The translations under genes and the position numbers were made by a program. A stretch of 64,000 bases of DNA from a virus. Shown here piece after piece: positions 2,295 through 36,976 of this stretch (its first letter is position 1; each line of letters starts with the position of its first letter). Below the pieces are notes generated by a model, which was not told the DNA's origin, did not search any database, and worked only from the letters and a program-made list of their open reading frames with translations. The stretch is taken from positions 32,001-96,000 of IMG/VR virus record IMGVR_UViG_3300044614_001341, one strand, 5' to 3'.

Positions 2295-3779
2295 TCAGAA
2301 CCTAAACTGGGTCTGAATCACACCACCATAGTTAGAAGAAGCATTCTTGAATCCTTGATTATTGGAAACATAGAAGATTGCAGGAGTGATGCTAATATTA
2401 TCACTCACACGATAGCGATAGAAGGTTTCCCACATCAGAGCATCCTTAGTGAGGGAAGCAGCATTGCCAGGAGCACCGATGGCAAAACCAGCAGCATTAC
2501 CCTTAGCAAACACATCTGCCCACTGGACACCAGCAAACCAAGTCTCAGACTTAGTAGCAGCACGGGGAGTAGCAGGACCTTCTACAGTGTTCCACCCATA
2601 AGCACCACTCACAGAAGGAATGATGCCAGACTTCTTAGGTTGCCAGTAAGCATTCACGGCATAACCATTAGAGGTTTGATTAGCGGCAAGAGTACCAGCA
2701 TTACCAGAAACACCATTGAAGGTGCGAACACGAGTGCCTTCAGTACCATAACGATAACCAAATGCGATGCCATACTGAGGAGCACGATAACCAAACTGTG
2801 CCAGAGTATTCAAAGCACCAGATTCATCAAATTCCCCTTTGCTAGAATCGGAACCGTTCTGGGCAACATAGTTCACACCAGCAACGAATCCACCCTTACC
2901 TTTCTTAGTAGGTTGTGCCCACTGAGCACCGAAACCAGAACCAGTTGCTTTGTTGTAAACACCAGGAGCGCCTGCAACAGCAAAGAAGTCCAGAATGTCA
3001 GACTTATAAGCAGTAGGAATCCAAGACATCTCAGTGTTACGAACCAGAGCACCAGCAGTCAAATTGAGACCTTTGGTGAGAGCAGGAAACTGATAGTACA
3101 GACGATCAAGTTGTACTTGGTTAGAAGTGCTTTCTGCCTTATCCAGTTTGAACAGAGACGAAGAAGAACCAAAGGGTTGACTGGAGAAATTACCAGAACG
3201 CAGACGAGTCTTCAGCAAATCCTTGCCAGTGAAAGAAGTATCGAAGTTCAGACGAACATCATAGTTGAATGCTGTGTTGCCAACGTTAGTGTTGTTAGCA
3301 AGACGAGCACCTTCTACACCACCAAGAACGAAGGTTGCTTCACCACGCAGTTTAGATGTAGTGGAGAACTGAGTTGCTTGAAGTTGACCAACTTGTGCTT
3401 CCAGTTTATCAACACGACCACGAATAACTAGAAGTTCTTCAGCAAATTCTTTCGAAAGACGCTGAAGTTCATCAGTTACTTCAGTTACACGATCCAGACA
3501 GGCATTCAGGAGTGCTGCTGCCTCATAACGGGTCATTGCCTTACCACCACCATAAGTGCCGTTAGGATATCCTGCTACGCAACCATAACGCTCCACAAGG
3601 TTGCTAAGTGCCTGATATGCCCAATCAGAAGGTTGAACATCAGAGAATTGAGTGACGCTTGTTGCCTGCTCAGAAGAGTATTGATTGACTGCTGCAATAT
3701 TAAGGTCTGCGGCATTCGCAACAGCAGGAGCAATCATACCAAGAGCAACAGGTGCAAGCATCAGTTGTTTGATTTTCAT
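2295..3779 (-). CDS. cyanobacterial outer-membrane porin (Som-type, SLH + OprB barrel)
   Basis: signal peptide, SLH motif FSDVQPSDWAYQAL...MTRYEAAALL, FSTTSKLRGE, LDRLYYQFP, C-terminal Phe. Confidence 0.92.
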   Translation of the reverse strand: MKIKQLMLAPVALGMIAPAVANAADLNIAAVNQYSSEQATSVTQFSDVQPSDWAYQALSNLVERYGCVAGYPNGTYGGGKAMTRYEAAALLNACLDRVTEVTDELQRLSKEFAEELLVIRGRVDKLEAQVGQLQATQFSTTSKLRGEATFVLGGVEGARLANNTNVGNTAFNYDVRLNFDTSFTGKDLLKTRLRSGNFSSQPFGSSSSLFKLDKAESTSNQVQLDRLYYQFPALTKGLNLTAGALVRNTEMSWIPTAYKSDILDFFAVAGAPGVYNKATGSGFGAQWAQPTKKGKGGFVAGVNYVAQNGSDSSKGEFDESGALNTLAQFGYRAPQYGIAFGYRYGTEGTRVRTFNGVSGNAGTLAANQTSNGYAVNAYWQPKKSGIIPSVSGAYGWNTVEGPATPRAATKSETWFAGVQWADVFAKGNAAGFAIGAPGNAASLTKDALMWETFYRYRVSDNISITPAIFYVSNNQGFKNASSNYGGVIQTQFRF

Positions 3780-3922: not shown

Positions 3923-3993
3923 AGCGAATGACGGGGATCGAACCCGTGACACCAACTTGGAAGGATGGGATGTTACCGCTACACCACATTCGC
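3923..3993 (-). tRNA. tRNA-Gly(TCC)
   Basis: GCGAATG acceptor, loop CTTCCAA, GTTCGATCC. Confidence 0.93.
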
Positions 3994-4039
3994 AATGTGG
4001 GAGATTTGACTCTCCCAGCACTTCACTTCACACGGAAGT
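3994..4039 (-). ncRNA. candidate small RNA / structured tRNA-Gly leader
   Basis: own promoter (4044-4072); single-stranded 5' ACUUCCGUGUGAAG then hairpin UGGGAGA-GUCAAA-UCUCCCA. Confidence 0.4.
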
Positions 4040-4043
4040 ATAA

Positions 4044-4072
4044 AGTATAAGACATAATGAGTATTATGTCAA
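4044..4072 (-). promoter_or_regulatory. sigma70-like promoter with internal palindrome
   Basis: TTGACA-17-TATACT; GACATAAT-N4-ATTATGTC inverted repeat spans the spacer. Confidence 0.7.
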
Positions 4073-4143
4073 GCCCCCGATCTGATTCGAACAGACGACC
4101 AACGGTTTACAAAACCGTTGCTCTACCACTGAGCTACAAGGGC
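4072..4143 (-). tRNA. tRNA-Thr(TGT)
   Basis: GCCCTTG acceptor, TAGCTCAGTGGTAGAGC D-arm, loop TTTGTAA. Confidence 0.95.
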
Positions 4144-4222
4144 AACGCGGGGGTGATCAATTCCCCGACCTAACAAAGTTAGGATTTAGAAAGGAAGACC
4201 CAGACATTTCCAGACCTTCCAA

Positions 4223-4295
4223 CTCCCCCAGTTTGACTCGAACAAACAACCTCAGAGTTAACAGCTCCGCGCACTGCCAATTGTGCTATAGGGGA
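4223..4295 (-). tRNA. tRNA-Asn(GTT)
   Basis: TCCCCTA acceptor, loop CTGTTAA, GTTCGAGTC. Confidence 0.93.
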
Positions 4296-4445
4296 TTGGT
4301 GGTAGGAGGGATTTCTATGTGCAGACAGAATCACCTTTCACATCATCCAGACTAAACCAGCGAGAGGTGTTGCACTTCCTACATTTGATGGATTAAGTGT
4401 GATACACCTCATAAGGATGTAACAGGGACTTAACCTCTATCACTT
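4296..4445 (-). ncRNA. candidate structured non-coding RNA(s)
   Basis: nested complementary segments GTAGGA/TCCTAC, GTGCA/TGCAC, CACCT/AGGTG; second domain TTAAGT/ACTTAA enclosing TACATC/GGTGTA; no ORF in the track. Confidence 0.4.
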
Positions 4446-4452
4446 TTATATA

Positions 4453-5016
4453 TTACACTAATTCTGAAATAATGTCAAGTCTAAGTTCTGCGTGTATTTC
4501 TCTATGACAATTAGCACATACACATACACACTTATCAAGTTCTTTTTTCTGGTCTTCCCATTTTCTTAATTTTAAATTTCCAAAATTTTTATCTTTTTGA
4601 TCTGGGTCAATATGATGAAATTCTAAGGCATCAATACATTTATTATATCCACATTTTTCACATTTTCCACCCTTATACTCTACTGCTTTTTTCTTACTAT
4701 TTTTCCACCTATCAGCATTATAATTGTTATGGCATTTTTTACAATTTGCTTGCCATACCTTTTTACTTTCACGCCAATATCCAGTTTCTTCATTTAAAAA
4801 AATTCCACATTTGGAGCAATTTTGTATTGGTTTACCATCAACTCTAAGAATATGATTTTCACCAATATAACCGTCACTAAATGATTTATTTGCCGTTTTC
4901 AATTTATACTTATTCAACCAATATCTAATACTTGTAGCACTTTTATTTGTTTTTTTACCAATATCCCTTATAGACATTTTTTGTTCCACAAAGGATTTAA
5001 GAATAGAATATTCCAT
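4453..5016 (-). CDS. HNH endonuclease with N-terminal HTH and Zn fingers (tRNA-cluster associated)
   Basis: GGKCEKCGY...ALEFHHIDP...CANCHREIH HNH signature. Confidence 0.88.
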   Translation of the reverse strand: MEYSILKSFVEQKMSIRDIGKKTNKSATSIRYWLNKYKLKTANKSFSDGYIGENHILRVDGKPIQNCSKCGIFLNEETGYWRESKKVWQANCKKCHNNYNADRWKNSKKKAVEYKGGKCEKCGYNKCIDALEFHHIDPDQKDKNFGNLKLRKWEDQKKELDKCVCVCANCHREIHAELRLDIISELV

Positions 5017-5063
5017 TAGTTCAGTAGATATATATTGTTATTTATACAACTGAACTATTATAG

Positions 5064-5136
5064 CAGGCGTATCAGGATTCGAACCTGAGATAAGGCTTTA
5101 GAAGAGCCGTGTGATAATCCACTTCACCATACGCCC
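5064..5136 (-). tRNA. tRNA-Arg(TCT)
   Basis: GGGCGTA acceptor, loop CTTCTAA, GTTCGAATC. Confidence 0.93.
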
Positions 5137-5140
5137 ATAA

Positions 5141-5204
5141 GTAGGTTCCTATCGCCGCCACTCCTGAACCTACCGAAGGGGAGTGCCGCAGTTGATCTCT
5201 CAAC
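5141..5204 (-). ncRNA. candidate pseudoknotted RNA in tRNA-Arg leader
   Basis: CACTCC/GGAGTG stem whose loop GTAGGTTC pairs with downstream GAACCTAC; promoter TTGACG-17-TATAAT at 5211-5239. Confidence 0.45.
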
Positions 5205-5241
5205 TCTCATATTATAGCAGTCCTTGAGAGAGTCGTCAAGG

Positions 5242-5323
5242 TGGGCAGGGAGGGATTTGAACCCCCGTAGGCAGAGCCAGCGGATTTACAGTCCGCCTCC
5301 ATTAACCACTCGGACACCTGTCC
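5242..5323 (-). tRNA. tRNA-Tyr(GTA)
   Basis: loop CTGTAAA, variable arm, GTTCAAATC; one A-C mismatch in acceptor stem. Confidence 0.92.
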
Positions 5324-5385: not shown

Positions 5386-6048
5386 TCAAACTTCTACCGT
5401 GATCAGTCGGTTAGCATACTCATGAGCATACGAAGTGCGGGCACCATGAATGCCCCAACCAATCCAACTATACGCATAGTCCATGTAACGATTGATAGAC
5501 TTACCAGGAGTTTTCATCCTATCTGCAATTCGTTTCCATTGAACCTCAGTCGTTAGATAACCAAGTTGCGTTTGAAGAGATGATGGATTTCCACCAAACC
5601 TTCTAGCAAAATCACCCAATCCATAATAACGATCGGCAGATGTCCATTGGATCAGACCATAACCACGTCCGCAGTGATGGTACTGAGTCCTACTACCACC
5701 TTCACAAATATTAGGCACGAACATAGATTCCTGCTTAATATTGCCCAGGATAGTAGCAAGGGCGTTTCTGTCTTTAATTCCTTGCTCTTGGAAATAATCC
5801 AGAGCAAGTTGTTCATGTTCATTACACCCTTTACAAATTAACCTTTTCTCTTTTGGCTTTTCGGGAGCAACCTCTCGGATTGCTGTCTTCTTTTCATCTA
5901 CAAGATCAAACTCCCTAATAACAGAAAATGGTTTCGAATCCACTGGAGGTGGTGGACCCTGCATCTTGTAGTTGACGAATGGCAGTGTTGCCGTACTGGT
6001 TGTAACCGATGCCAAAAGGGGCAGGGTTACAGTAAAGAATTGTTGCAT
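5386..6048 (-). CDS. phage tail-lysozyme-like (Phage_lysozyme2-type) muralytic protein with N-terminal hydrophobic leader
   Basis: ATILGNIKQES...GYGLIQWT...R motif; start reassigned to ATG 6046-6048. Confidence 0.75.
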   Translation of the reverse strand: MQQFFTVTLPLLASVTTSTATLPFVNYKMQGPPPPVDSKPFSVIREFDLVDEKKTAIREVAPEKPKEKRLICKGCNEHEQLALDYFQEQGIKDRNALATILGNIKQESMFVPNICEGGSRTQYHHCGRGYGLIQWTSADRYYGLGDFARRFGGNPSSLQTQLGYLTTEVQWKRIADRMKTPGKSINRYMDYAYSWIGWGIHGARTSYAHEYANRLITVEV

Positions 6049-6241
6049 TAATTTTAATTGAACTCTACATCCGTATAGAAGGGGGGTACACCACCTCTCT
6101 CGAAGGGCACCTTCCACGGCTCTAATGTCACTTCAATGACTCATAATAAGAAACCCGCCATTTTGTAGCGGGCTTGTACATAATAAGTTAATATTTATGA
6201 TCTGTCAAGTGGACCAAGTGGACCAATTGAAAAACTGTCTC

Positions 6242-6249
6242 CATAAATA
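6242..6249 (+). promoter_or_regulatory. T4-type late promoter (CATAAATA) for plus-strand operon
   Basis: ATAAATA about 25 nt upstream of ATG 6273. Confidence 0.65.
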
Positions 6250-6272
6250 CTTACACACCATATTTCAGAACG

Positions 6273-6734
6273 ATGAAAAGATTAGCACTTATCTTTTCGT
6301 TATTCTTCACTACTCCTGCTTTTGCTGGCGAAATCACATCAAAAATCACTGACTCAATTCAATTAGGCGTTCAGGGTGCAGCGGTACAATCAGAAAGAGT
6401 AGGAGCATCCTACGCTGTCTCGGGCACAAACATTAATGTAACAACTCTTGGAGGAGTTGGTGGAGCAGGTTCTTATGACATCAACACAAACGGGCAAGCA
6501 TTTAGTTTCTCTGAGACATCAATTACTGCAGATGTTGATGTTACCTCTCAGTCGGCAGCTTCTGGAACAATTGCTTCTCCCAACCTTTACGGCAACTCTA
6601 CTACTCAGTTAGGTGGTGATAAAGGTTCTCTCGCAGGTACTTTGAGTGGAACTACCGTTCCTAGCGTAACTGCTGGTGGGTCGGGAACCACGGCAACAGC
6701 ACAACGTAGCGTAGAACTGAGCGTATTCAAGTGA
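6273..6734 (+). CDS. exported Ser/Thr/Gly-rich beta protein, unknown function
   Basis: Sec signal peptide ending AFA; paralogous to next ORF. Confidence 0.8.
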   Translation: MKRLALIFSLFFTTPAFAGEITSKITDSIQLGVQGAAVQSERVGASYAVSGTNINVTTLGGVGGAGSYDINTNGQAFSFSETSITADVDVTSQSAASGTIASPNLYGNSTTQLGGDKGSLAGTLSGTTVPSVTAGGSGTTATAQRSVELSVFK

Positions 6735-7093
6735 GACGCATAACTCTCGGACTGCTTACAGTTCTGGGAGTTATAAGTCCTTCATATGCTGGACCAGTAA
6801 CTCCCAACTTCACCAGTGGGACAATTACCTCCGAAACGAAAACGCGAACTGAAGTTATTGAAACTATCAGACAAATAGAATACACTACTGGAACATCTTA
6901 TACAGTCACTGGAACCAACATCAATATACCAGGAACTCCTGCTCCTGGTATGAATTACACAATTCAAACTCAAGGTGCTCCATTCCAATTTAGTGAGACT
7001 TATCTGACTCCTGGAGTGGCAAAGGAAACATGGATAGACAGAAAAACTACAGAAGATTCTTTAACAAACACAATATCAGTCTTTACGCAGTAA
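6731..7093 (+). CDS. exported Thr-rich beta protein, unknown function
   Basis: signal peptide ending SYA; GTGA overlap with previous stop. Confidence 0.8.
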   Translation: MRRITLGLLTVLGVISPSYAGPVTPNFTSGTITSETKTRTEVIETIRQIEYTTGTSYTVTGTNINIPGTPAPGMNYTIQTQGAPFQFSETYLTPGVAKETWIDRKTTEDSLTNTISVFTQ

Positions 7094-7632
7094 TAATTTT
7101 ATTGTTGACATTGACTGGATCGAGTAAAGGACAACAAGCACCAAGCAATACAAATATTGCAGGACCCTCAGCATCTGCGACTGGTAACGTAACTAACCAG
7201 GCAGTTCAGGTGCTTCAGGGTCCTTTTGCTTTAAATACTTATGGTGGCGGAGTTTCTTGCCAGGGTCCCACAATGAGTGTCGCACCGTTTATATTGGGAA
7301 ATACAAACTATAATGAGGACCCACAATCATTCCAATCTTATAGTGGAAATGCTGGTATCTCTTTTGGATTTAATTTTCCTCTAGATGGTTCATTACAAGA
7401 ACTTTGTAAAGCAAGAGTTCGTGTAGAAATTTCAAGGCAACAAGCAGAAGCAGATAAAGGAAGACTTGACTTTGAGCTTGTGAGACTTTTGAAGTGTGGT
7501 GAAGCACTGAAAAATGGAATTTCATTTCACCCAGAAAGTCCTTATGCAAAAATTTGTGCTGATATTGTTGTGAAGTATCCACAAGTACAGGATATAGCAA
7601 ATGGAAATCAAACAAATACAGATAAGAAGTGA
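7030..7632 (+). CDS. exported protein with putative membrane beta-hairpin and helices (4 Cys); start uncertain
   Basis: hydrophobic leader; CQGPTMSV...NAGISFGFNFPLDG followed by amphipathic helices. Confidence 0.75.
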   Translation: MDRQKNYRRFFNKHNISLYAVIILLLTLTGSSKGQQAPSNTNIAGPSASATGNVTNQAVQVLQGPFALNTYGGGVSCQGPTMSVAPFILGNTNYNEDPQSFQSYSGNAGISFGFNFPLDGSLQELCKARVRVEISRQQAEADKGRLDFELVRLLKCGEALKNGISFHPESPYAKICADIVVKYPQVQDIANGNQTNTDKK

Positions 7633-8275
7633 ACCTCCACCTATCATTCCAACGATAGAACCCCCTGTAACTCGCAGCACAGAACGTTCTATCGTACCTC
7701 AAATTGATATTCCCATCATCAATATGCCAGATACAACTATCAAGTATCCAGTAATTGATGTTCCAACTCAAGAAGAATTTGATGCTGCAGTCAGAGCGGA
7801 ACAAAAAAAGAAAGAAGAAGAAAAAGAAGAAAAAAGTAGAGGACTTCCTGATACTGCACCAGTTATACCACAACAACTTGTACAGCAGGATGTACAAGCA
7901 GTACAAGTTCCCACACAAGTTGAAACATCAAATACAAATTTAGGAGTACCGGTCATTGAAGTACCAATCGTCGGGGAAGTTCCAGTTCCTCCAAAAGAAC
8001 AGGTTATACTTGCTGGCACCACTGCTACTGCTTCTGTTGCTGCGGCTCTTATTGGCAAATCTTTGGTGGAATGGATGGTAGGTAAAATGAAACCTATTGT
8101 TCAGCAGATATTCGTAAGGGGTAAGAAACTTTTAAGCAAAGATCTTACCCCATATGAAACTCAGGTTTATTTTGCTTTCGAAAAATCTTCTTCTCTAAAG
8201 AAGGTCAATAAGTTACTCAAAAAAGAACAAAAGACTGAAAAGAAAGACCAATATAAAAAGTTTCACTCAAAGTGA
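7601..8275 (+). CDS. Pro-rich membrane-anchored protein, unknown function
   Basis: Pro-rich N-terminus, E/K run, hydrophobic segment VILAGTTATASVAAALIG, basic C-terminus. Confidence 0.75.
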   Translation: MEIKQIQIRSEPPPIIPTIEPPVTRSTERSIVPQIDIPIINMPDTTIKYPVIDVPTQEEFDAAVRAEQKKKEEEKEEKSRGLPDTAPVIPQQLVQQDVQAVQVPTQVETSNTNLGVPVIEVPIVGEVPVPPKEQVILAGTTATASVAAALIGKSLVEWMVGKMKPIVQQIFVRGKKLLSKDLTPYETQVYFAFEKSSSLKKVNKLLKKEQKTEKKDQYKKFHSK

Positions 8276-8290
8276 TTATTAATTTCAATA

Positions 8291-8503
8291 TTAAAAAGGA
8301 AACTTAATACTGGGAGTATTAAGTTTCGGAATAGGTAGTTTCTCAAATGCTTTCGATACTTGCTTCTCTACAACAGCACCAACAAACTCTTCCGGATTAT
8401 CTAGAATCTTCTGTGCTTTTTGATAAGTAATGTATGCTCCCACACAAAGAGCACCACTAATGGTGAGACTTGTGATTGATAGGATCAGACTCAGATGTTT
8501 CAT
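8291..8503 (-). CDS. small membrane-anchored protein
   Basis: N-terminal TM segment, 70 aa. Confidence 0.7.
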   Translation of the reverse strand: MKHLSLILSITSLTISGALCVGAYITYQKAQKILDNPEEFVGAVVEKQVSKAFEKLPIPKLNTPSIKFPF

Positions 8504-8609
8504 CTTGCATCTCCAAATATGCTAACTTTAATATGTAGTAAATGACATATGCAGTAAATATCAAACCAGAACAAAGAATTATAATTACGCCCCAAGGAAA
8601 TTCATTCAT
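8457..8609 (-). CDS. small membrane peptide (50 aa, MNEFPWGVIIILCSGLIFTAYVIYYIL...)
   Basis: manually translated; single TM; overlaps both neighbours. Confidence 0.55.
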   Translation of the reverse strand: MNEFPWGVIIILCSGLIFTAYVIYYILKLAYLEMQDETSESDPINHKSHH

Positions 8610-8802
8610 CCCAAACACCCTCTTGTTTATGAATCCAAATTTTTAAATCTTTAACGTATTTTCTTAGAATTTGTGCTTGTTCTTCGTGCCAAAAATCACC
8701 CGTCTCCATATGAAGGCGGGTGTGATTATCTATGGCTTTAAGTATTTGATGTATTGGAGGATTCCAACACTCACGCTTGGGAGTGTTCCACTCTCTTGGC
8801 AT
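8602..8802 (-). CDS. hypothetical cyanophage protein
   Basis: 66 aa ORF with GAGG SD. Confidence 0.7.
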   Translation of the reverse strand: MPREWNTPKRECWNPPIHQILKAIDNHTRLHMETGDFWHEEQAQILRKYVKDLKIWIHKQEGVWDE

Positions 8803-8811
8803 AAAACCTCA

Positions 8812-8919
8812 TTATTTTTTCTTACCACCATTCTTCGCTTTTTTGGCAGTAGCATTACCAGAGTTCTGCTTTTTATTATTTGCAGAACCCTTCTTACCTT
8901 TGTTTGCTGATTTTGCCAT
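8812..8919 (-). CDS. very basic 35 aa peptide (MAKSANKGKKGSANNKKQNSGNATAKKAKNGGKKK)
   Basis: manually translated; TAATG coupling and AGGAG SD. Confidence 0.6.
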   Translation of the reverse strand: MAKSANKGKKGSANNKKQNSGNATAKKAKNGGKKK

Positions 8920-9275
8920 TATGCTCCTGTGCGTGGTTGAACGAATCCTTCACCATCTTCTACTTTAGTTTCAAGTGCTTCAACTCTTGCTTCAAGAGTT
9001 TCTGGTGGTGCTTCAGGGGAAGGTGGTTCTGGTGGAGTTTCTACAAACTCCTCCCTCTTTGGTTGATCTTTCTTTTCATCTTCATCATCACCACCTTTCT
9101 TCATTGTATTGATGCCAAAAGTGGCAGCAGATGCTGTGAAGACTGTAGCGATAAAAGTTGGGTCCATCTTAGATAGAGTACCCGCATAACTTGCAGTGAG
9201 AAGAGCGGCAGACCAACCCAAGATACATATACGAATTAATTGTCCCATAGCATTTTCGTTTTTCTTAGTAGCCAT
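8919..9275 (-). CDS. two-TM membrane protein, putative holin
   Basis: two hydrophobic helices then charged/Pro tail; directly downstream of lysozyme. Confidence 0.55.
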   Translation of the reverse strand: MATKKNENAMGQLIRICILGWSAALLTASYAGTLSKMDPTFIATVFTASAATFGINTMKKGGDDEDEKKDQPKREEFVETPPEPPSPEAPPETLEARVEALETKVEDGEGFVQPRTGA

Positions 9276-9293: not shown

Positions 9294-9965
9294 TTAACCT
9301 TTTTTCCAAGATTCACCTTCTGCTTTTCTTCTACGAGCAAGTCCTGCTTCTACATTGGAACCAGGATTTCTGTAGAGATATAAAGCATCGGGAACTAAGT
9401 CCCATTCTTTATTCTTCAGTCTCTTAGTGATAGTATTAAAATCACCAGAACCATAAAAACCAGCACCGAGATTATAAGCAAAAGAAAGTAGGGCACCTCT
9501 TTTACCATCAGACATTTCATTCCAGTGTGGAATTTTACGAAGTGCAGGAAGAAATTCTCTCTTGCATTGTTCAATCAAAAGTTCATCTGCTTCTTGTTGG
9601 GTAAGTGTATCACCCATATGGAATGCAGATCCATCTTTCTTACGAGTTGAACCCCAACCAATTGTGATTGGAAGTCCACCAGTGAGAGGGTCTGGATATG
9701 CTTTGAGGTGACATCCTTCAAACTCTTTGATCAATTTAAGTCCCATCATAGGCATATCGTCACCACCAACTACAGGAGCGGCAGCAGATGGTGCTGATGC
9801 TGGTGCCGCATTACCCTTTTTTCCTCTGTAGATCTCCGCCCAATCTACATTATCTTCTAGATACTTGACTGGTAGATTATCTTCTAACCATTGAACTGCT
9901 TTCACATGATTAGGGTTCTTCTCGTCATAGAACTTGAAGAAGTTATGTAAATCGATTCTTGCCAT
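9294..9965 (-). CDS. endolysin, GH24 lysozyme with extra N-terminal domain
   Basis: IKEFEG...YPD...ITIGWG catalytic motif, SFAYNLG, GLARRRKAE; GGAG SD before ATG 9965. Confidence 0.9.
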   Translation of the reverse strand: MARIDLHNFFKFYDEKNPNHVKAVQWLEDNLPVKYLEDNVDWAEIYRGKKGNAAPASAPSAAAPVVGGDDMPMMGLKLIKEFEGCHLKAYPDPLTGGLPITIGWGSTRKKDGSAFHMGDTLTQQEADELLIEQCKREFLPALRKIPHWNEMSDGKRGALLSFAYNLGAGFYGSGDFNTITKRLKNKEWDLVPDALYLYRNPGSNVEAGLARRRKAEGESWKKG

Positions 9966-10092
9966 TGTCGTCTCCAAAGTATTTGTTGAAAAGTTTGGAA
10001 GCTTCTAAATGCTTTCCGTGATTTGTAAGATCTTTAATTCTTTGCAAGATCTTTCTCTTGAAATTAATCGAAGATTCTGCCCCATCCATCAT
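9943..10092 (-). CDS. small hypothetical protein (start uncertain)
   Basis: ORF bridging the peptidase and lysozyme genes. Confidence 0.45.
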   Translation of the reverse strand: MMDGAESSINFKRKILQRIKDLTNHGKHLEASKLFNKYFGDDNGKNRFT

Positions 10093-10735
10093 TGCCCCCT
10101 GGACACCAACGGTGCTTAAGAACTGCTTTGGTATAAATGGTTTTCTTACCATTCGTTACGGGACCAGTATAATTGTCATTGAGAGAACCATAAGGATCAT
10201 TAATATAATATCCCTTACCATCTGGAGTCTTACCAATGACCACGCACATGTGCCCACCAGTAGGAGAAGTTAGAGAACCACGGTGGAGAATACCAATAAC
10301 AACAGGTTTTCCTCTATCAAGACTCTTATCAATATCAACAAAACTTAAATTATAACTAAAGTGTGATTTAATACCATAACCTTGTAGAACTTTAGTCTGC
10401 ACTGCATGGTCTGTAGTATCACCAATCGCAAATACTTTCTTAACATACTCATCATCACCTTTAATGCTTCCTGGTTTGAGGAAAGCAAGACACATTGCAC
10501 ACGATGAAGAGTTGCAAGTTCTTTGTGCATCTCTATAGTTGTCTACTTGGTTAAAGTATGGAACATCAAGAACTGCTGGAGTTGGTGGTTTTGTTCTAAA
10601 AATTCCAATCCATTCAGATTCTGAGTCATCCATAAATTGAGCAGGAAGGTTATCCTCTAACCATTGAACTGCTGCTACATGATTCACATTACCATCATCA
10701 TAATACTTAAAAAAGTTATGAAGATCTAATGTCAT
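10064..10735 (-). CDS. C39-like cysteine peptidase with N-terminal domain shared with the lysozyme
   Basis: LDVPYFNQ, CNSSSCAM (Cys), GGHMCVVIG (His), INDPYG (Asp). Confidence 0.85.
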   Translation of the reverse strand: MTLDLHNFFKYYDDGNVNHVAAVQWLEDNLPAQFMDDSESEWIGIFRTKPPTPAVLDVPYFNQVDNYRDAQRTCNSSSCAMCLAFLKPGSIKGDDEYVKKVFAIGDTTDHAVQTKVLQGYGIKSHFSYNLSFVDIDKSLDRGKPVVIGILHRGSLTSPTGGHMCVVIGKTPDGKGYYINDPYGSLNDNYTGPVTNGKKTIYTKAVLKHRWCPGGNDGWGRIFD

Positions 10736-10778: not shown

Positions 10779-10958
10779 TTAATCTCCAATATATTCCAAT
10801 GAAAAAATATCATGCTCCAAAATATCTGGATCTAACCATTCATTAAATTCTTTTTGAATGGCATGAGCATTTTCATAATTTTTTTCTTCGCATAGTGAGT
10901 GCATACGGTCAATTGCCCAATCATGTGAGATACGAAGTGTATTTTCAAGAATTGTCAT
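10779..10958 (-). CDS. hypothetical cyanophage protein
   Basis: ORF overlapping end of upstream nuclease gene; start reassigned. Confidence 0.6.
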   Translation of the reverse strand: MTILENTLRISHDWAIDRMHSLCEEKNYENAHAIQKEFNEWLDPDILEHDIFSLEYIGD

Positions 10959-11376
10959 TAAAATAATCCTTTCTAAAATATCTGGAGAGAATATTGCTAT
11001 TGTAGTATGCAGGTTCTCCAGAGTCAAGTGCTTCAGTCAATACATTATTAAGAAATAGTTGTCTCGTTTCTTCAAAATTACATTTACCTTTGGTCTTATG
11101 AAGACTTATTATTTCTCTATTGAAAAACTCTTTGCCATACTTAATCACGTCTTCTTTAAGTTCTGGACAGGAACCATAATATTTTTTCCAATCAGACTCT
11201 GATTTAACTTTTCTAGATTTTCCCTTCGGTGTGCGAAAAGACCAGAAGTATTTCCTACCCACATATCTGCGATTAGTTTTACTGCAAGATATGAGATATA
11301 CAAAACCAAAATAATCTTCAATATTAGAAGACTCAAAAATTTCTCCATTGAATCTCCAAGGATTCTCATAGCTCAT
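10945..11376 (-). CDS. GIY-YIG nuclease (endonuclease II-like)
   Basis: GFVYLI...RYVGRK, WKKYYGS, YYN motifs. Confidence 0.8.
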   Translation of the reverse strand: MSYENPWRFNGEIFESSNIEDYFGFVYLISCSKTNRRYVGRKYFWSFRTPKGKSRKVKSESDWKKYYGSCPELKEDVIKYGKEFFNREIISLHKTKGKCNFEETRQLFLNNVLTEALDSGEPAYYNSNILSRYFRKDYFNDNS

Positions 11377-36423: not shown

Positions 36424-36466
36424 TTACTAAACCTCGTAATATAATACTATTTAGTAAATGAATTAT

Positions 36467-36976
36467 TTACACCCATTCTGGTTTACGTTCTGGCATACGG
36501 AGATAGTTGTCCGCAACCCAGGGTTTGGAAGCAATATACATTTTGTATGCAGTAAATGTATCAATGCTTTCATCAAATTTGTATTCGTCAGGCATAGCAC
36601 GAACGAATGGAGTCACCTCAGTAATCTTTCCTTTGGGAAAAAGGTAGTATGCGGCAACAAGAGTATTATAACACGAATGCTGCTTGCCGTATCGCAGAGT
36701 GTACTCATCACAGAGATTCATCCCGTGCTTAATCAACCAGTAGGCATTGTCAATAGTCTTTGCTACCCATTGAGTGCAGGGATGATTGCGAAAGGCACCC
36801 TTCTCAGTTGCATAGGAGGTTCCATCTGCTTTAGGAAGAGTGCCATAGTTGTGATACCACTTAGATGCCACGATAGAAAGCATTTGGCAGCACTCAAGAG
36901 ACATTTTCGTTACGTGACGGTCAGGAAGTACGATAGCACTTTCTGCTGGAAATGGTGAAGTGACAAAAATATTCAA
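36467..36976 (-). CDS. pyrimidine-dimer DNA glycosylase-like (DenV family) protein
   Basis: NIF...DRHVTKM.LE..QMLS, NHPCT.W, EY..RYGK.H. Confidence 0.75.
   Translation of the reverse strand: MNIFVTSPFPAESAIVLPDRHVTKMSLECCQMLSIVASKWYHNYGTLPKADGTSYATEKGAFRNHPCTQWVAKTIDNAYWLIKHGMNLCDEYTLRYGKQHSCYNTLVAAYYLFPKGKITEVTPFVRAMPDEYKFDESIDTFTAYKMYIASKPWVADNYLRMPERKPEWV

Follow-up and report, generated by a model that had tools for sequence, protein, structure and literature searches.

An exported, cyanophage-specific gene module beside lysis genes as a candidate for breaching the host outer envelope

What does a T4-like cyanophage do with four overlapping genes that run against every other credible gene around them? 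The question is raised by a stretch of 64,000 nucleotides (the window) from the virus record IMGVR_UViG_3300044614_001341, in which four genes, here called O1 (6273-6734), O2 (6731-7093), O3 (7030-7632) and O4 (7601-8275), occupy the plus strand. An earlier note on this DNA, made from the letters alone, had described them as overlapping, as the only counter-oriented unit in 64 kb and as standing behind a late promoter, and on all three points it was right. The four frames and their overlaps were confirmed by an ORF check, and every other plus-strand frame of at least 110 aa is a shadow of a longer minus-strand gene, including the one ambiguous case (36458-36958), which shadows a PHROG-matched DNA-binding gene; O1-O4 are the sole credible plus-strand coding unit of the window. 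The late-promoter-like motif CATAAATA is located on the plus strand at 6242-6249, 31 nt upstream of the O1 start, and TAAATA is found 17-39 nt (mostly 29-36 nt) before O1 in 64 of 65 related loci, the published consensus of the cyanomyovirus late promoter being NATAAATA (PMC2984593). Between the operon and a divergent tail-lysozyme-like gene, a consensus scan and the sequence itself place a G+C-rich hairpin (6151-6175) that appears terminator-like for the minus strand.

The first two products are predicted to be exported paralogues. O1 (153 aa; T4-GC 237) is a Thr/Ser/Gly-rich beta protein that matches phrog_564 (E 6e-28) and is known from 251 phage records; in some of the records its homologues are labeled "OMP1 protein." The shorter O2 (120 aa; T4-GC 236), known from 385 phage records, is a member of DUF6322 (PF19847), with 51.2 bits against a gathering cut-off of 30.6. 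O1 has no Pfam match and is joined to O2 by BLASTP (33% identity, E 1e-10) and by an iterative jackhmmer profile search, and the motifs SY.V.GTNI, F.FSE and a terminal SVF are conserved in both, in agreement with the paralogy originally claimed. The Sec signal peptides ascribed to the pair are also predicted as canonical, with cleavage between ..TPAFA and GE in O1 and between ..SPSYA and GP in O2. In its AF2 model (pLDDT 79.9), O2 is predicted to form a long beta-hairpin with a small head, the strands (30-52 and 95-118) being about 23 residues each, Thr-rich and charged. A profile of the O2 alignment matched nothing meaningful among PDB sequences, named clusters of the ESM Atlas held nothing usable for O2, and the model gave no significant fold match in Foldseek against the PDB or in a VIA-wide search (best Foldseek E 2e-3, Z ≤3.9). 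Its few non-significant neighbors are the phi29 collar, anthrax PA, iota Ib, the lysenin/aerolysin pores, FliF and the LP ring, so that two independent searches return, below significance, long-hairpin protomers from ring or barrel assemblies.

O3 (200 aa; T4-GC 235, also "Gp165"; phrog_848, phrog_1755) is likewise predicted to be exported, and its hydrophobic N-terminus is encoded within the overlap with O2. The four cysteines reported for it are present, each conserved in some 90% or more of family members by column analysis, and the family also conserves an N-terminal motif, GSVTNQAVQ. The AF2 model of the mature protein (pLDDT 81.8) predicts one long hairpin (47-59, 69-81), two short strands and a single 42-residue helix. 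Along strand 106-118 hydrophobic and small polar residues alternate throughout the family, pointing to an amphipathic hairpin, the tip of which is variable and takes insertions of about 100 aa; the strand pair ends in a P-L-D-G-type turn that is followed by the long helix, with a 7-residue indel and an a/d-like hydrophobic stripe. Foldseek against the PDB and the VIA-wide search returned no significant fold match for O3 (best Foldseek E 0.5, VIA Z ≤5), and BFVD and the ESM Atlas returned only its own family and its own clusters, respectively. Natural O2-O3 fusions were considered as a proxy for a complex and rejected, as the long "homologues" turned out to be tip-inserted O3 or overlapping-frame artefacts. 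The family comprises 302 clusters among 1.84 billion representatives, and all 462 phage records with O3 are Synechococcus or Prochlorococcus phages, T7-like cyanopodoviruses included. When 185,579 species, each represented by one genome, were scanned with the GSVTNQAVQ motif required, 12 hits were obtained and no bona fide cellular locus among them: 11 lie on MAG or single-cell contigs of at most 22 kb, and the remaining match, 27 residues long, is to a 190-kb MAG contig that looks like misbinned phage. Within the range of such motif-bearing sequences, O3 is to all appearances a phage-only family.

O4 (224 aa) is, judging from hydropathy, charge and a shared motif, a bitopic membrane protein of the T4-GC 234 type. 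It had been credited with a Pro-rich region, one hydrophobic segment and a basic tail; indeed, residues 1-145 hold 20 Pro and a net charge of -9, a single weakly hydrophobic, Ala/Thr-rich segment lies at about 134-153, and the tail has a net charge of +10. The same architecture and the motif TAGTTA..SVAA..MKPI are common to S-CAM9 gp164, P-SSP7_042, P-SSP10 and S-TIP37.

The three putative cell-wall hydrolases that had been noticed around the operon are borne out by Pfam. The divergent tail-lysozyme-like gene (5386-6117, minus strand; PF18013, E 1e-15; phrog_512) neighbors the operon in just 15 of 88 loci, and it is therefore not a fixed member of the module. The other two, both on the minus strand, are an endolysin with a phage lysozyme domain and an additional N-terminal domain (9294-9977; PF00959, E 7e-22; phrog_7 endolysin) and a C39-like cysteine peptidase (10064-10735; PF13529, E 7.5e-14; phrog_10051 "endolysin"), which probably also cleaves the cell wall. 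The lysozyme gene is followed directly on the minus strand by a gene (8919-9275; T4-GC 218) for a holin-like DUF6450 protein, which has two TM segments, ends in a charged C-terminus and is assigned to PF20048 (E 8.9e-16; 57.9 bits over 8919-9272, gathering cut-off 25). This gene is present in 76 of 88 related loci, and its product aligns with P-SSP7_043, P-SSP10 and S-CAM9 gp161 at 14 invariant residues. The earlier note missed it, and by sequence and synteny it belongs to the O1-O4 module; in about 40 of the 88 loci the C39 peptidase, lysozyme and DUF6450 genes follow in this order and converge on O1-O3. Between O4 and DUF6450 there are three small minus-strand genes, encoding a protein with an N-terminal membrane anchor by hydropathy (8291-8503; syntenic in 56 of 88 loci), a single-TM protein (8457-8618; hydropathy, phrog_25130, phrog_814; 51 loci) and a soluble protein of 66 aa (8602-8802; 58 loci), the first two accompanying the module in the near clade. 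O4 itself is on the opposite strand in 16 of the 78 loci with an O4 match, directly downstream of DUF6450 in 15 of them, and wherever the small TM genes are present too, they share its inversion as a single block with the gene of the 66-aa protein. T4-GC 234 of marine phages similarly occurs in both orientations. It had gone unnoticed that O4 would sometimes be transcribed from the opposite, lysozyme-holin operon.

[quoted passage not shown] The module is present in hundreds of T4-like cyanophages, and O3 is carried by the T7-like phages S-TIP37, P-SSP10, S-SBP1, P-SCSP1 and MED4-184. In P-SSP7, genes 042-045 encode an O4-like protein (one TM), DUF6450 (two TM), O2 (signal peptide) and O3, with the small terminase next, and the order is the same in P-SSP10 and S-TIP37, so that the slot of the module in cyanopodoviruses lies between tail fibre and small terminase. 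T7 has lysis genes, including the holin gene 17.5, between these same two landmarks.

This cluster is already in the literature, which the earlier note also missed. Sullivan et al. (2010) recorded it as hypothetical proteins (T4-GCs 218/234/235/236/237; cassette 218, 219, 234, 235, 237) in 15 of 16 cyanomyoviruses, at variable positions and often beside a plasmid-stability gene, and gave it no function, localisation or structure and no tie to T7-like cyanophages or lysis genes (PMC3037559). By tblastn against P-HM2, O1, O2, O3 and DUF6450 match PHM2_197, 196, 195 and 191, that is GC 237, 236, 235 and 218, and PHM2_194 (GC 234) has the O4 architecture; homology and relative order thus identify the module with the T4-GC 218/234/235/236/237 cassette, and the coordinates in P-SSM7 and P-RSM4 agree. 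What sets the window, a freshwater-type relative, apart from that cassette is that O4 is joined to the O1-O3 operon and that lysozyme and peptidase genes lie immediately beside the module. Searches of Pfam, NCBIfam, PHROGs and PADLOC with O1-O4 gave unnamed families only, and no functional study of DUF6322, cyanophage spanins or cyanophage OMP1 turned up in the literature searched. For timing, P-HM2 is informative: PHM2_191 (DUF6450), 194 (O4-like) and 197 (O1) were classified as "Late," 196 (O2) as Late/Mid and 195 (O3) as Mid (PMC5082946 supplement).

Taken together, the evidence supports O1-O4 as exported or membrane proteins that belong to a single conserved functional unit with linkage to lysis genes and are not virion proteins. 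Their localisation, oligomerisation and role in lysis we infer, and we regard the module as the best available candidate for breakage of the host outer envelope by these phages. That it is a non-spanin device breaching the envelope at lysis seems to us possible, somewhat short of probable. A more specific version is more doubtful: marine and freshwater picocyanophages of the two families would share a non-spanin, non-lipoprotein machine with O1, O2 and O3 as hairpin protomers, O4 as its proline-rich inner-membrane anchor and DUF6450 as its private holin, and this machine, put together from the periplasmic side as a barrel or coiled coil, would complete lysis by destroying the outer membrane. 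Late in infection, O1, O2 and O3 would be exported via Sec to the periplasm, and O4 and DUF6450 would insert into the cytoplasmic membrane, where DUF6450 would serve the neighboring lysozyme and C39 peptidase as their class-II-type holin. The acidic Pro-rich arm of O4 would extend into the periplasm and its basic tail would stay in the cytoplasm. At the outer membrane, O3 and O1/O2 could assemble into oligomeric beta-barrel or coiled-coil structures, O3 supplying a disulfide-stabilised amphipathic hairpin and a helix with a heptad pattern and O1/O2 supplying hairpins of about 75 Å. Once the wall is cut, these assemblies might perforate or detach the outer membrane, the job done by spanins in other phages.

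Several observations count against the lysis reading. Syn5 lyses its host and the module is absent from its T7 lysis-gene position; S-PM2 also lyses its host without the cluster (PMC3037559), and no recognisable endolysin adjoins the module in marine myoviruses. Nor is it obvious why a general lysis device should be restricted to picocyanobacterial phages. The proposed periplasmic arm of O4 would moreover be unusual, since an N-terminal domain of about 130 residues would have to be translocated with no signal peptide to direct it.

Four other explanations have to be weighed against lysis. In the first, superinfection exclusion or receptor masking, late exported proteins would modify or block receptors at the cell surface, or the periplasm, and so spare incoming phages or debris-binding progeny; this we consider unlikely. 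The restriction of exported proteins to cyanophages, the variable cassette position often near a plasmid-stability gene, and the hypervariable O3 hairpin tip with its large insertions, as expected of a surface-exposed host-specific interface, are what it would predict. However, exclusion genes are usually early and this module is late, five conserved families are much machinery for masking, PADLOC has no match, and the tie to a lysozyme, a holin-like gene and the T7 lysis slot is left unexplained. The second would make the module a standing trans-envelope secretion conduit, with O3 as a TolC-like channel, O1/O2 as a periplasmic tube and O4 as a tether, exporting a fibre, enzyme or other cargo before lysis. 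The O3 hairpin and long helix, the repeated TolC-family rows among weak Foldseek hits, the resemblance of the O2 model to tube or barrel protomers and the Pro-rich spacer and anchor of O4 agree with such a conduit, yet neither an ATPase or proton-motive-force coupler nor an obvious cargo gene travels with the module, O3 has no OEP sequence match and a single repeat to the two of TolC, and the structural scores are all non-significant, making it improbable. Thirdly, cyanobacterial Sec substrates are sorted both to the periplasm and to the thylakoid lumen, a point that counts against the lysis reading and opens the way for O1-O3 to be sent to the lumen and alter photosynthetic membranes late in infection. 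Although the module is exclusive to picocyanobacterial phages and psbA, psbD or hli genes often lie close to the cassette, linkage to the lysozyme, C39 peptidase and holin-like gene and the T7 lysis-gene position speak against a thylakoid function, and we know of no counterpart of an outer-membrane-type amphipathic hairpin in the lumen; we give it a low probability. Virion or assembly proteins, such as low-copy tail or fibre accessories with uncleaved hydrophobic N-termini, are a very improbable reading that we rejected despite late expression alongside structural genes, the podovirus position just after the tail-fibre genes and phage tail/collar proteins among the best O2 Foldseek rows, for there are three canonical Sec signal peptides, disulfide-type conserved cysteines and membrane partners indicating export, the same proteins occur with unrelated T4-like and T7-like tails, and none of T4-GC 218 or 234-237 is listed in the virion proteomes of S-SM1, S-PM2 and Syn9 (Supplementary Table 8, PMC3037559).

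Returning to lysis, PMC1079782 reported the absence of the rII lysis genes of T4 and of genes 3.5, 17.5 and 18.5 of T7, and PMC2984593 that of the T4 r genes. The module offers a concrete, testable gene set: five families in hundreds of genomes, mid-to-late expression in a relative, linkage to the endolysin in this window and, in podoviruses, the position of the T7 lysis genes. Should these genes indeed serve lysis, they would represent a new mechanistic class of phage lysis and would explain how the SLH-tethered outer membrane of cyanobacteria is breached, and an outer-membrane-destroying machine would join spanins and cationic disruptin peptides as a third class of disruptor. Should they serve another purpose, the module would remain among the most conserved cyanophage-specific gene sets lacking an assigned function.

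How does the module compare with known systems? The earlier note had seen in O3 a half-TolC and had proposed Foldseek against TolC as a check. O3 does present an amphipathic strand pair, the P-L-D-G-type turn and a long helix, and TolC, OprM and ST50 recur in weak Foldseek rows; the homology, however, did not hold up. At E≤1 O3 matched no Pfam family, OEP (PF02321) included, a profile of 121 O3 homologues found nothing among PDB sequences at E≤10, the TolC/OprM-type Foldseek rows (2vdd, 5bun, 3d5k, 7akz, 9j3d, 7ng9) are non-significant (E 1-2.7, probability ~0.1), and in the VIA-wide search the helix alone aligned to TolC-family chains (Z ≤5). TolC has two tandem strand-helix repeats, whereas O3 has one hairpin and one helix and carries four conserved cysteines, and membership of the TolC family was rejected on the missing sequence match and the single repeat. 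Second, the long hairpin and small head of O2 resemble pore formers (anthrax PA, iota Ib, aerolysin, lysenin) and the collar or tail proteins of phi29, P68 and Andhra; for aerolysin/PA-type stems Foldseek gives E 5e-3 to 6e-2, below significance, and VIA Z 3.5-3.7 with rmsd 4.9-6.5 Å over 48-65 residues. The O2 strands differ in being Thr-rich and charged, not lipid-facing and hydrophobic, and O2 lacks a receptor-binding or cap domain. The likeness of O2 to pore stems or tube proteins may reflect nothing beyond a long hairpin. Weak alignment to pore stems or TolC can be expected of every long hairpin or helix, which makes such likeness generic, and the monomer AF2 models of such elongated proteins are unreliable as well (pTM 0.36 and 0.56). 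Of the oligomeric beta-rich assembly envisaged in the earlier note, the part that stands is that the predicted elongated protomers, hairpin plus helix in O3 and hairpin in O2, are compatible with it; a significant structural match did not emerge.

DUF6450 can be compared with a known class. In size, two TM segments, highly charged tail and position directly after the endolysin gene, as given by hydropathy, alignment and gene order, it agrees with class II holins (two TM, N-in/C-in, charged C-terminus), and it has no match to the holin families of Pfam and PHROGs. Finally, the remark that no canonical spanin pair is recognised in the window was upheld: a crude lipobox scan of the 64 kb revealed no credible spanin-like ORF, and the whole record (114.6 kb, ~56% complete) has no Pfam match to Rz, Rz1 or T-holin. 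Neither do the module proteins qualify as spanins, as the cleavage sites of O1-O3 are of SPase-I type with no Cys and no PF06085 match (o-spanin), and O4 has its hydrophobic segment at 134-153 of 224, a Pro-rich stretch before it and no PF03245 match (i-spanin). The likeness to lambda Rz/Rz1, T7 gp18.5/18.7 and T4 PseT.3/PseT.2 is one of arrangement: late genes (timing taken from a relative) with overlapping frames in or beside a holin-endolysin cassette, one inner-membrane-anchored partner with the others exported, conserved periplasmic Cys, a Pro-rich component, and action proposed after wall degradation. In contrast, the module has no sequence relation to spanins and no lipoprotein, its anchor carries the membrane segment near the C-terminus and not at the N-terminus, three exported beta-rich proteins stand where spanins have one lipoprotein of 40-60 aa, and its proposed mechanism would be barrel or pore formation instead of membrane fusion.

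The 114.6-kb IMG/VR virus record that contains the window derives from a T4-like cyanomyovirus; its closest isolated relatives, at ~70% nucleotide identity across the region, are two Synechococcus phages from lakes, DSL-LC02 and DSL-LC03. The plus strand carries four genes that overlap head to tail, O1 (6273-6734, 153 aa), O2 (6731-7093, 120 aa), O3 (7030-7632, 200 aa) and O4 (7601-8275, 224 aa). Since the remaining plus-strand ORFs of at least 110 aa in the window are shadows of longer minus-strand genes, including an ambiguous ORF at 36458-36958 that shadows a PHROG-matched DNA-binding gene, O1-O4 form its only counter-oriented coding unit, as the earlier note had claimed. The late promoter that it had placed ahead of the operon is likewise borne out: CATAAATA lies at 6242-6249, 31 nt upstream of O1, NATAAATA is the reported late promoter of cyanomyoviruses (PMC2984593), and a TAAATA motif stands 17-39 nt (mostly 29-36 nt) upstream of the O1 start in 64 of the 65 related loci having sufficient upstream sequence.

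By tblastn, 462 phage records contain O3, 385 contain O2 and 251 contain O1; every one belongs to a Synechococcus or Prochlorococcus phage, and those with O3 include T7-like cyanopodoviruses. Co-occurrence of the genes in relatives had been set beforehand as a check, and the order and orientation of O1-O2-O3 proved constant across 88 loci. The four genes belong to a wider conserved module whose fifth family, DUF6450, is encoded on the minus strand at 8919-9275, directly downstream of the lysozyme gene; it is a protein with two TM segments whose C-terminus is charged, and its alignment with podovirus and marine-myovirus proteins shows 14 invariant residues. DUF6450 falls inside the fetched flank in 76 of the 88 loci, with lysozyme and C39 peptidase upstream of it in ~40. 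In P-SSP7, the tail-fibre genes are followed by PSSP7_042 (O4-like: Pro-rich, one TM segment, basic tail), PSSP7_043 (DUF6450, two TM segments), PSSP7_044 (O2, with signal peptide) and PSSP7_045 (O3), then by one small gene and the small terminase, an arrangement repeated in P-SSP10 and S-TIP37. O4 follows O3, as in the window, in 62 of the 88 loci and lies on the opposite strand in 16, of which 15 carry it immediately downstream of DUF6450, within the lysozyme operon; where these loci have the 66-aa gene and both small TM genes as well, all are inverted together with O4 and come after O3 as one block. Marine T4-GC 234 genes also occur in both orientations. That one gene, O4, can be read from either operon argues that the two convergent operons serve one function. 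Among close relatives, the block of O4, TM70, TM53 and the 66-aa gene (window 7601-8802) is an inversion polymorphism between O3 and DUF6450 (loci L019, L022, L035, L050, L052, L053, L055, L062, L063, L068, L074 and L087).

A scan of one genome from each of 185,579 prokaryote species, which depends on the conserved O3 motif and is not exhaustive, gave 12 matches, 11 of them on MAG or single-cell contigs of at most 22 kb. The twelfth is a stretch of 27 residues that shares 96% identity with the N-terminal motif of O3; its 190-kb contig from a Pelagibacterales MAG (L102, 189,841 bp) is as large as a T4-like cyanophage genome and probably represents a phage genome assigned to the MAG by mistake. 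HMMER against 1.84 billion cluster representatives returned 302 clusters only, and the O3 family looks phage-only.

The neighbouring minus-strand genes include a full-length cyanobacterial Som-type porin with SLH (PF00395) and OprB (PF04966) domains at 2295-3779. Porins of this kind tether the outer membrane to the wall, and the phage protein could bear on envelope handling in infection. Five tRNA genes (Gly-TCC, Thr-TGT, Asn-GTT, Arg-TCT and Tyr-GTA; 3923-5323, minus strand) are broken up by a 187-aa Cys-rich HNH-like ORF at 4453-5016 without Pfam match. The lysozyme (9294-9977, minus) and C39-like peptidase (10064-10735, minus) have a common N-terminal domain of ~50 aa; phrog_10051 covers the entire peptidase and residues 4-56 of the lysozyme, phrog_3617 spans both, and the pair resembles a single longer endolysin of other phages divided in half. 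Just upstream of them lies a SegE-type GIY-YIG homing endonuclease gene (10945-11376, minus; PF19835, E 1.6e-52).

O1 and O2, which had been described as exported paralogues, indeed each begin with a canonical Sec signal peptide (..TPAFA|GE and ..SPSYA|GP). Sequence comparison confirms the paralogy, with 33% identity in BLASTP (E 1e-10) and common motifs G.SY.VSGTNI, G..F.FSE and a terminal (L/I)SVF, and an iterative profile seeded with O2 gathers both in every myovirus locus. O2 belongs to Pfam DUF6322 (51.2 bits, cut-off 30.6). Its model (38-sequence alignment, pLDDT 79.9, pTM 0.36) predicts a small head and a hairpin of two 23-24-residue strands. In two independent searches the sole neighbours were long-hairpin protomers from ring or barrel assemblies, namely collar/tail proteins of phi29, P68 and Andhra, the pores anthrax PA, iota Ib, CDTb, aerolysin and lysenin, and FliF and the flagellar LP ring, none significant (best E 2.3e-3, Z 3.9).

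The hydrophobic N-terminus of O3 is encoded inside the O2 overlap, where its relatives in every lineage keep an equivalent h-region and A-x-A site. The four cysteines seen by the earlier note are kept in ~90% or more of the family, and the N-terminal motif GSVTNQAVQV is near-invariant and unstructured in the AF2 model. In this model of mature O3 (121-sequence alignment, mean pLDDT 81.8, pTM 0.56), a long hairpin formed by mature residues 47-59 and 69-81 is accompanied by two short strands and a helix of 42 residues. Family-wide, hydrophobic residues alternate with Ser/Thr/Asn/Gly at every position of the second strand (full-length 106-118), the hairpin tip accommodates ~100-residue insertions, and the helix has a 7-residue indel and a hydrophobic stripe spaced 3-4. 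In the marine homologues P0134, P0136, P0145 and P0149 the tip insertion is aromatic- and acid-rich and may be a separate domain. With Foldseek, the O3 model had no significant PDB match, TolC-family chains recurring at E 1-3 with a probability of ~0.1. VIA, which works independently of Foldseek, aligned the helix alone (Z at most 5), and the BFVD matches were all uncharacterised cyanophage 'Gp165' proteins.

The Pro-rich region, single hydrophobic segment and basic tail attributed to O4 are upheld by composition and charge: residues 1-145 hold 20 prolines with a net charge of -9, a weakly hydrophobic Ala/Thr-rich segment lies at ~134-153, and the tail carries +10. From this tail charge and the positive-inside rule, we infer that the tail is cytoplasmic and the Pro-rich arm outside. 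Between the T4-like and T7-like phages, O4 sequences share 22-31% identity; their weak homology is drawn from the architecture and a TAGTTA..SVAA..MKPI motif around the membrane segment. In S-TIP37 (NC_048026; L004 4137-4603) the O4-like gene is split across two frames, with the Pro-rich part annotated as gp46 and the TM segment and MKPI motif in an 87-aa ORF that is not annotated. The split may stem from a frameshift, programmed slippage or an error in sequencing.

The cassette's existence was already known, as the P-HM2 homologues bear the labels GC 237 (O1), 236 (O2), 235 (O3), 234 (O4-like) and 218 (DUF6450), and functional reasons for the clustering of these genes have been proposed (Sullivan et al.; PMC3037559); our literature search found no functional study. 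The best-supported reading, which we hold tentatively, is a late exported envelope module that would act as infection ends, alongside the endolysin(s) and its own holin-like protein, and whose most probable task is to breach the outer membrane. Against lysis, Syn5 lacks the module yet lyses its host, as does S-PM2 without the cluster (PMC3037559); moreover, the module is confined to picocyanophages, marine myoviruses have no recognisable endolysin adjoining it, and a periplasm-facing O4 requires that a long N-terminal domain be translocated across the membrane with no signal peptide to direct it. During P-HM2 infection, PHM2_191, 192, 193, 194 and 197 are Late, PHM2_196 Late/Mid and PHM2_195 Mid (PMC5082946, supplement 3), and Late genes peak at 4.5 h in the 8-h latent period (PMC5082946); that the exported proteins act in superinfection exclusion or receptor masking is conceivable and unlikely. 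The predicted O2 and O3 shapes are compatible with oligomeric barrels and no proof of them, being weak evidence because these are monomer models of elongated proteins and any long hairpin aligns to such stems; a true secretion conduit is quite improbable, and a role in the thylakoid lumen very much so. Virion or assembly proteins are the least credible option, the S-SM1, S-PM2 and Syn9 virion proteomes containing none of these clusters (Supplementary Table 8; PMC3037559).

Compared with known systems, the proposal of a half-TolC-like O3 is not borne out, and O3 is rejected as a TolC member: it has no match to the TolC-family Pfam PF02321 (OEP) at E of 1 or less, and it has one repeat whereas TolC has two. 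A loose architectural analogy is possible, in an amphipathic hairpin running into a long helix. The absence of a canonical spanin pair stands: Pfam matched neither Rz, Rz1 nor the T4 holin in the ~56%-complete record, and the window has no lipobox ORF. The predicted O4 topology is the opposite of that of an i-spanin. The module is not a spanin, and it may do a spanin's job.
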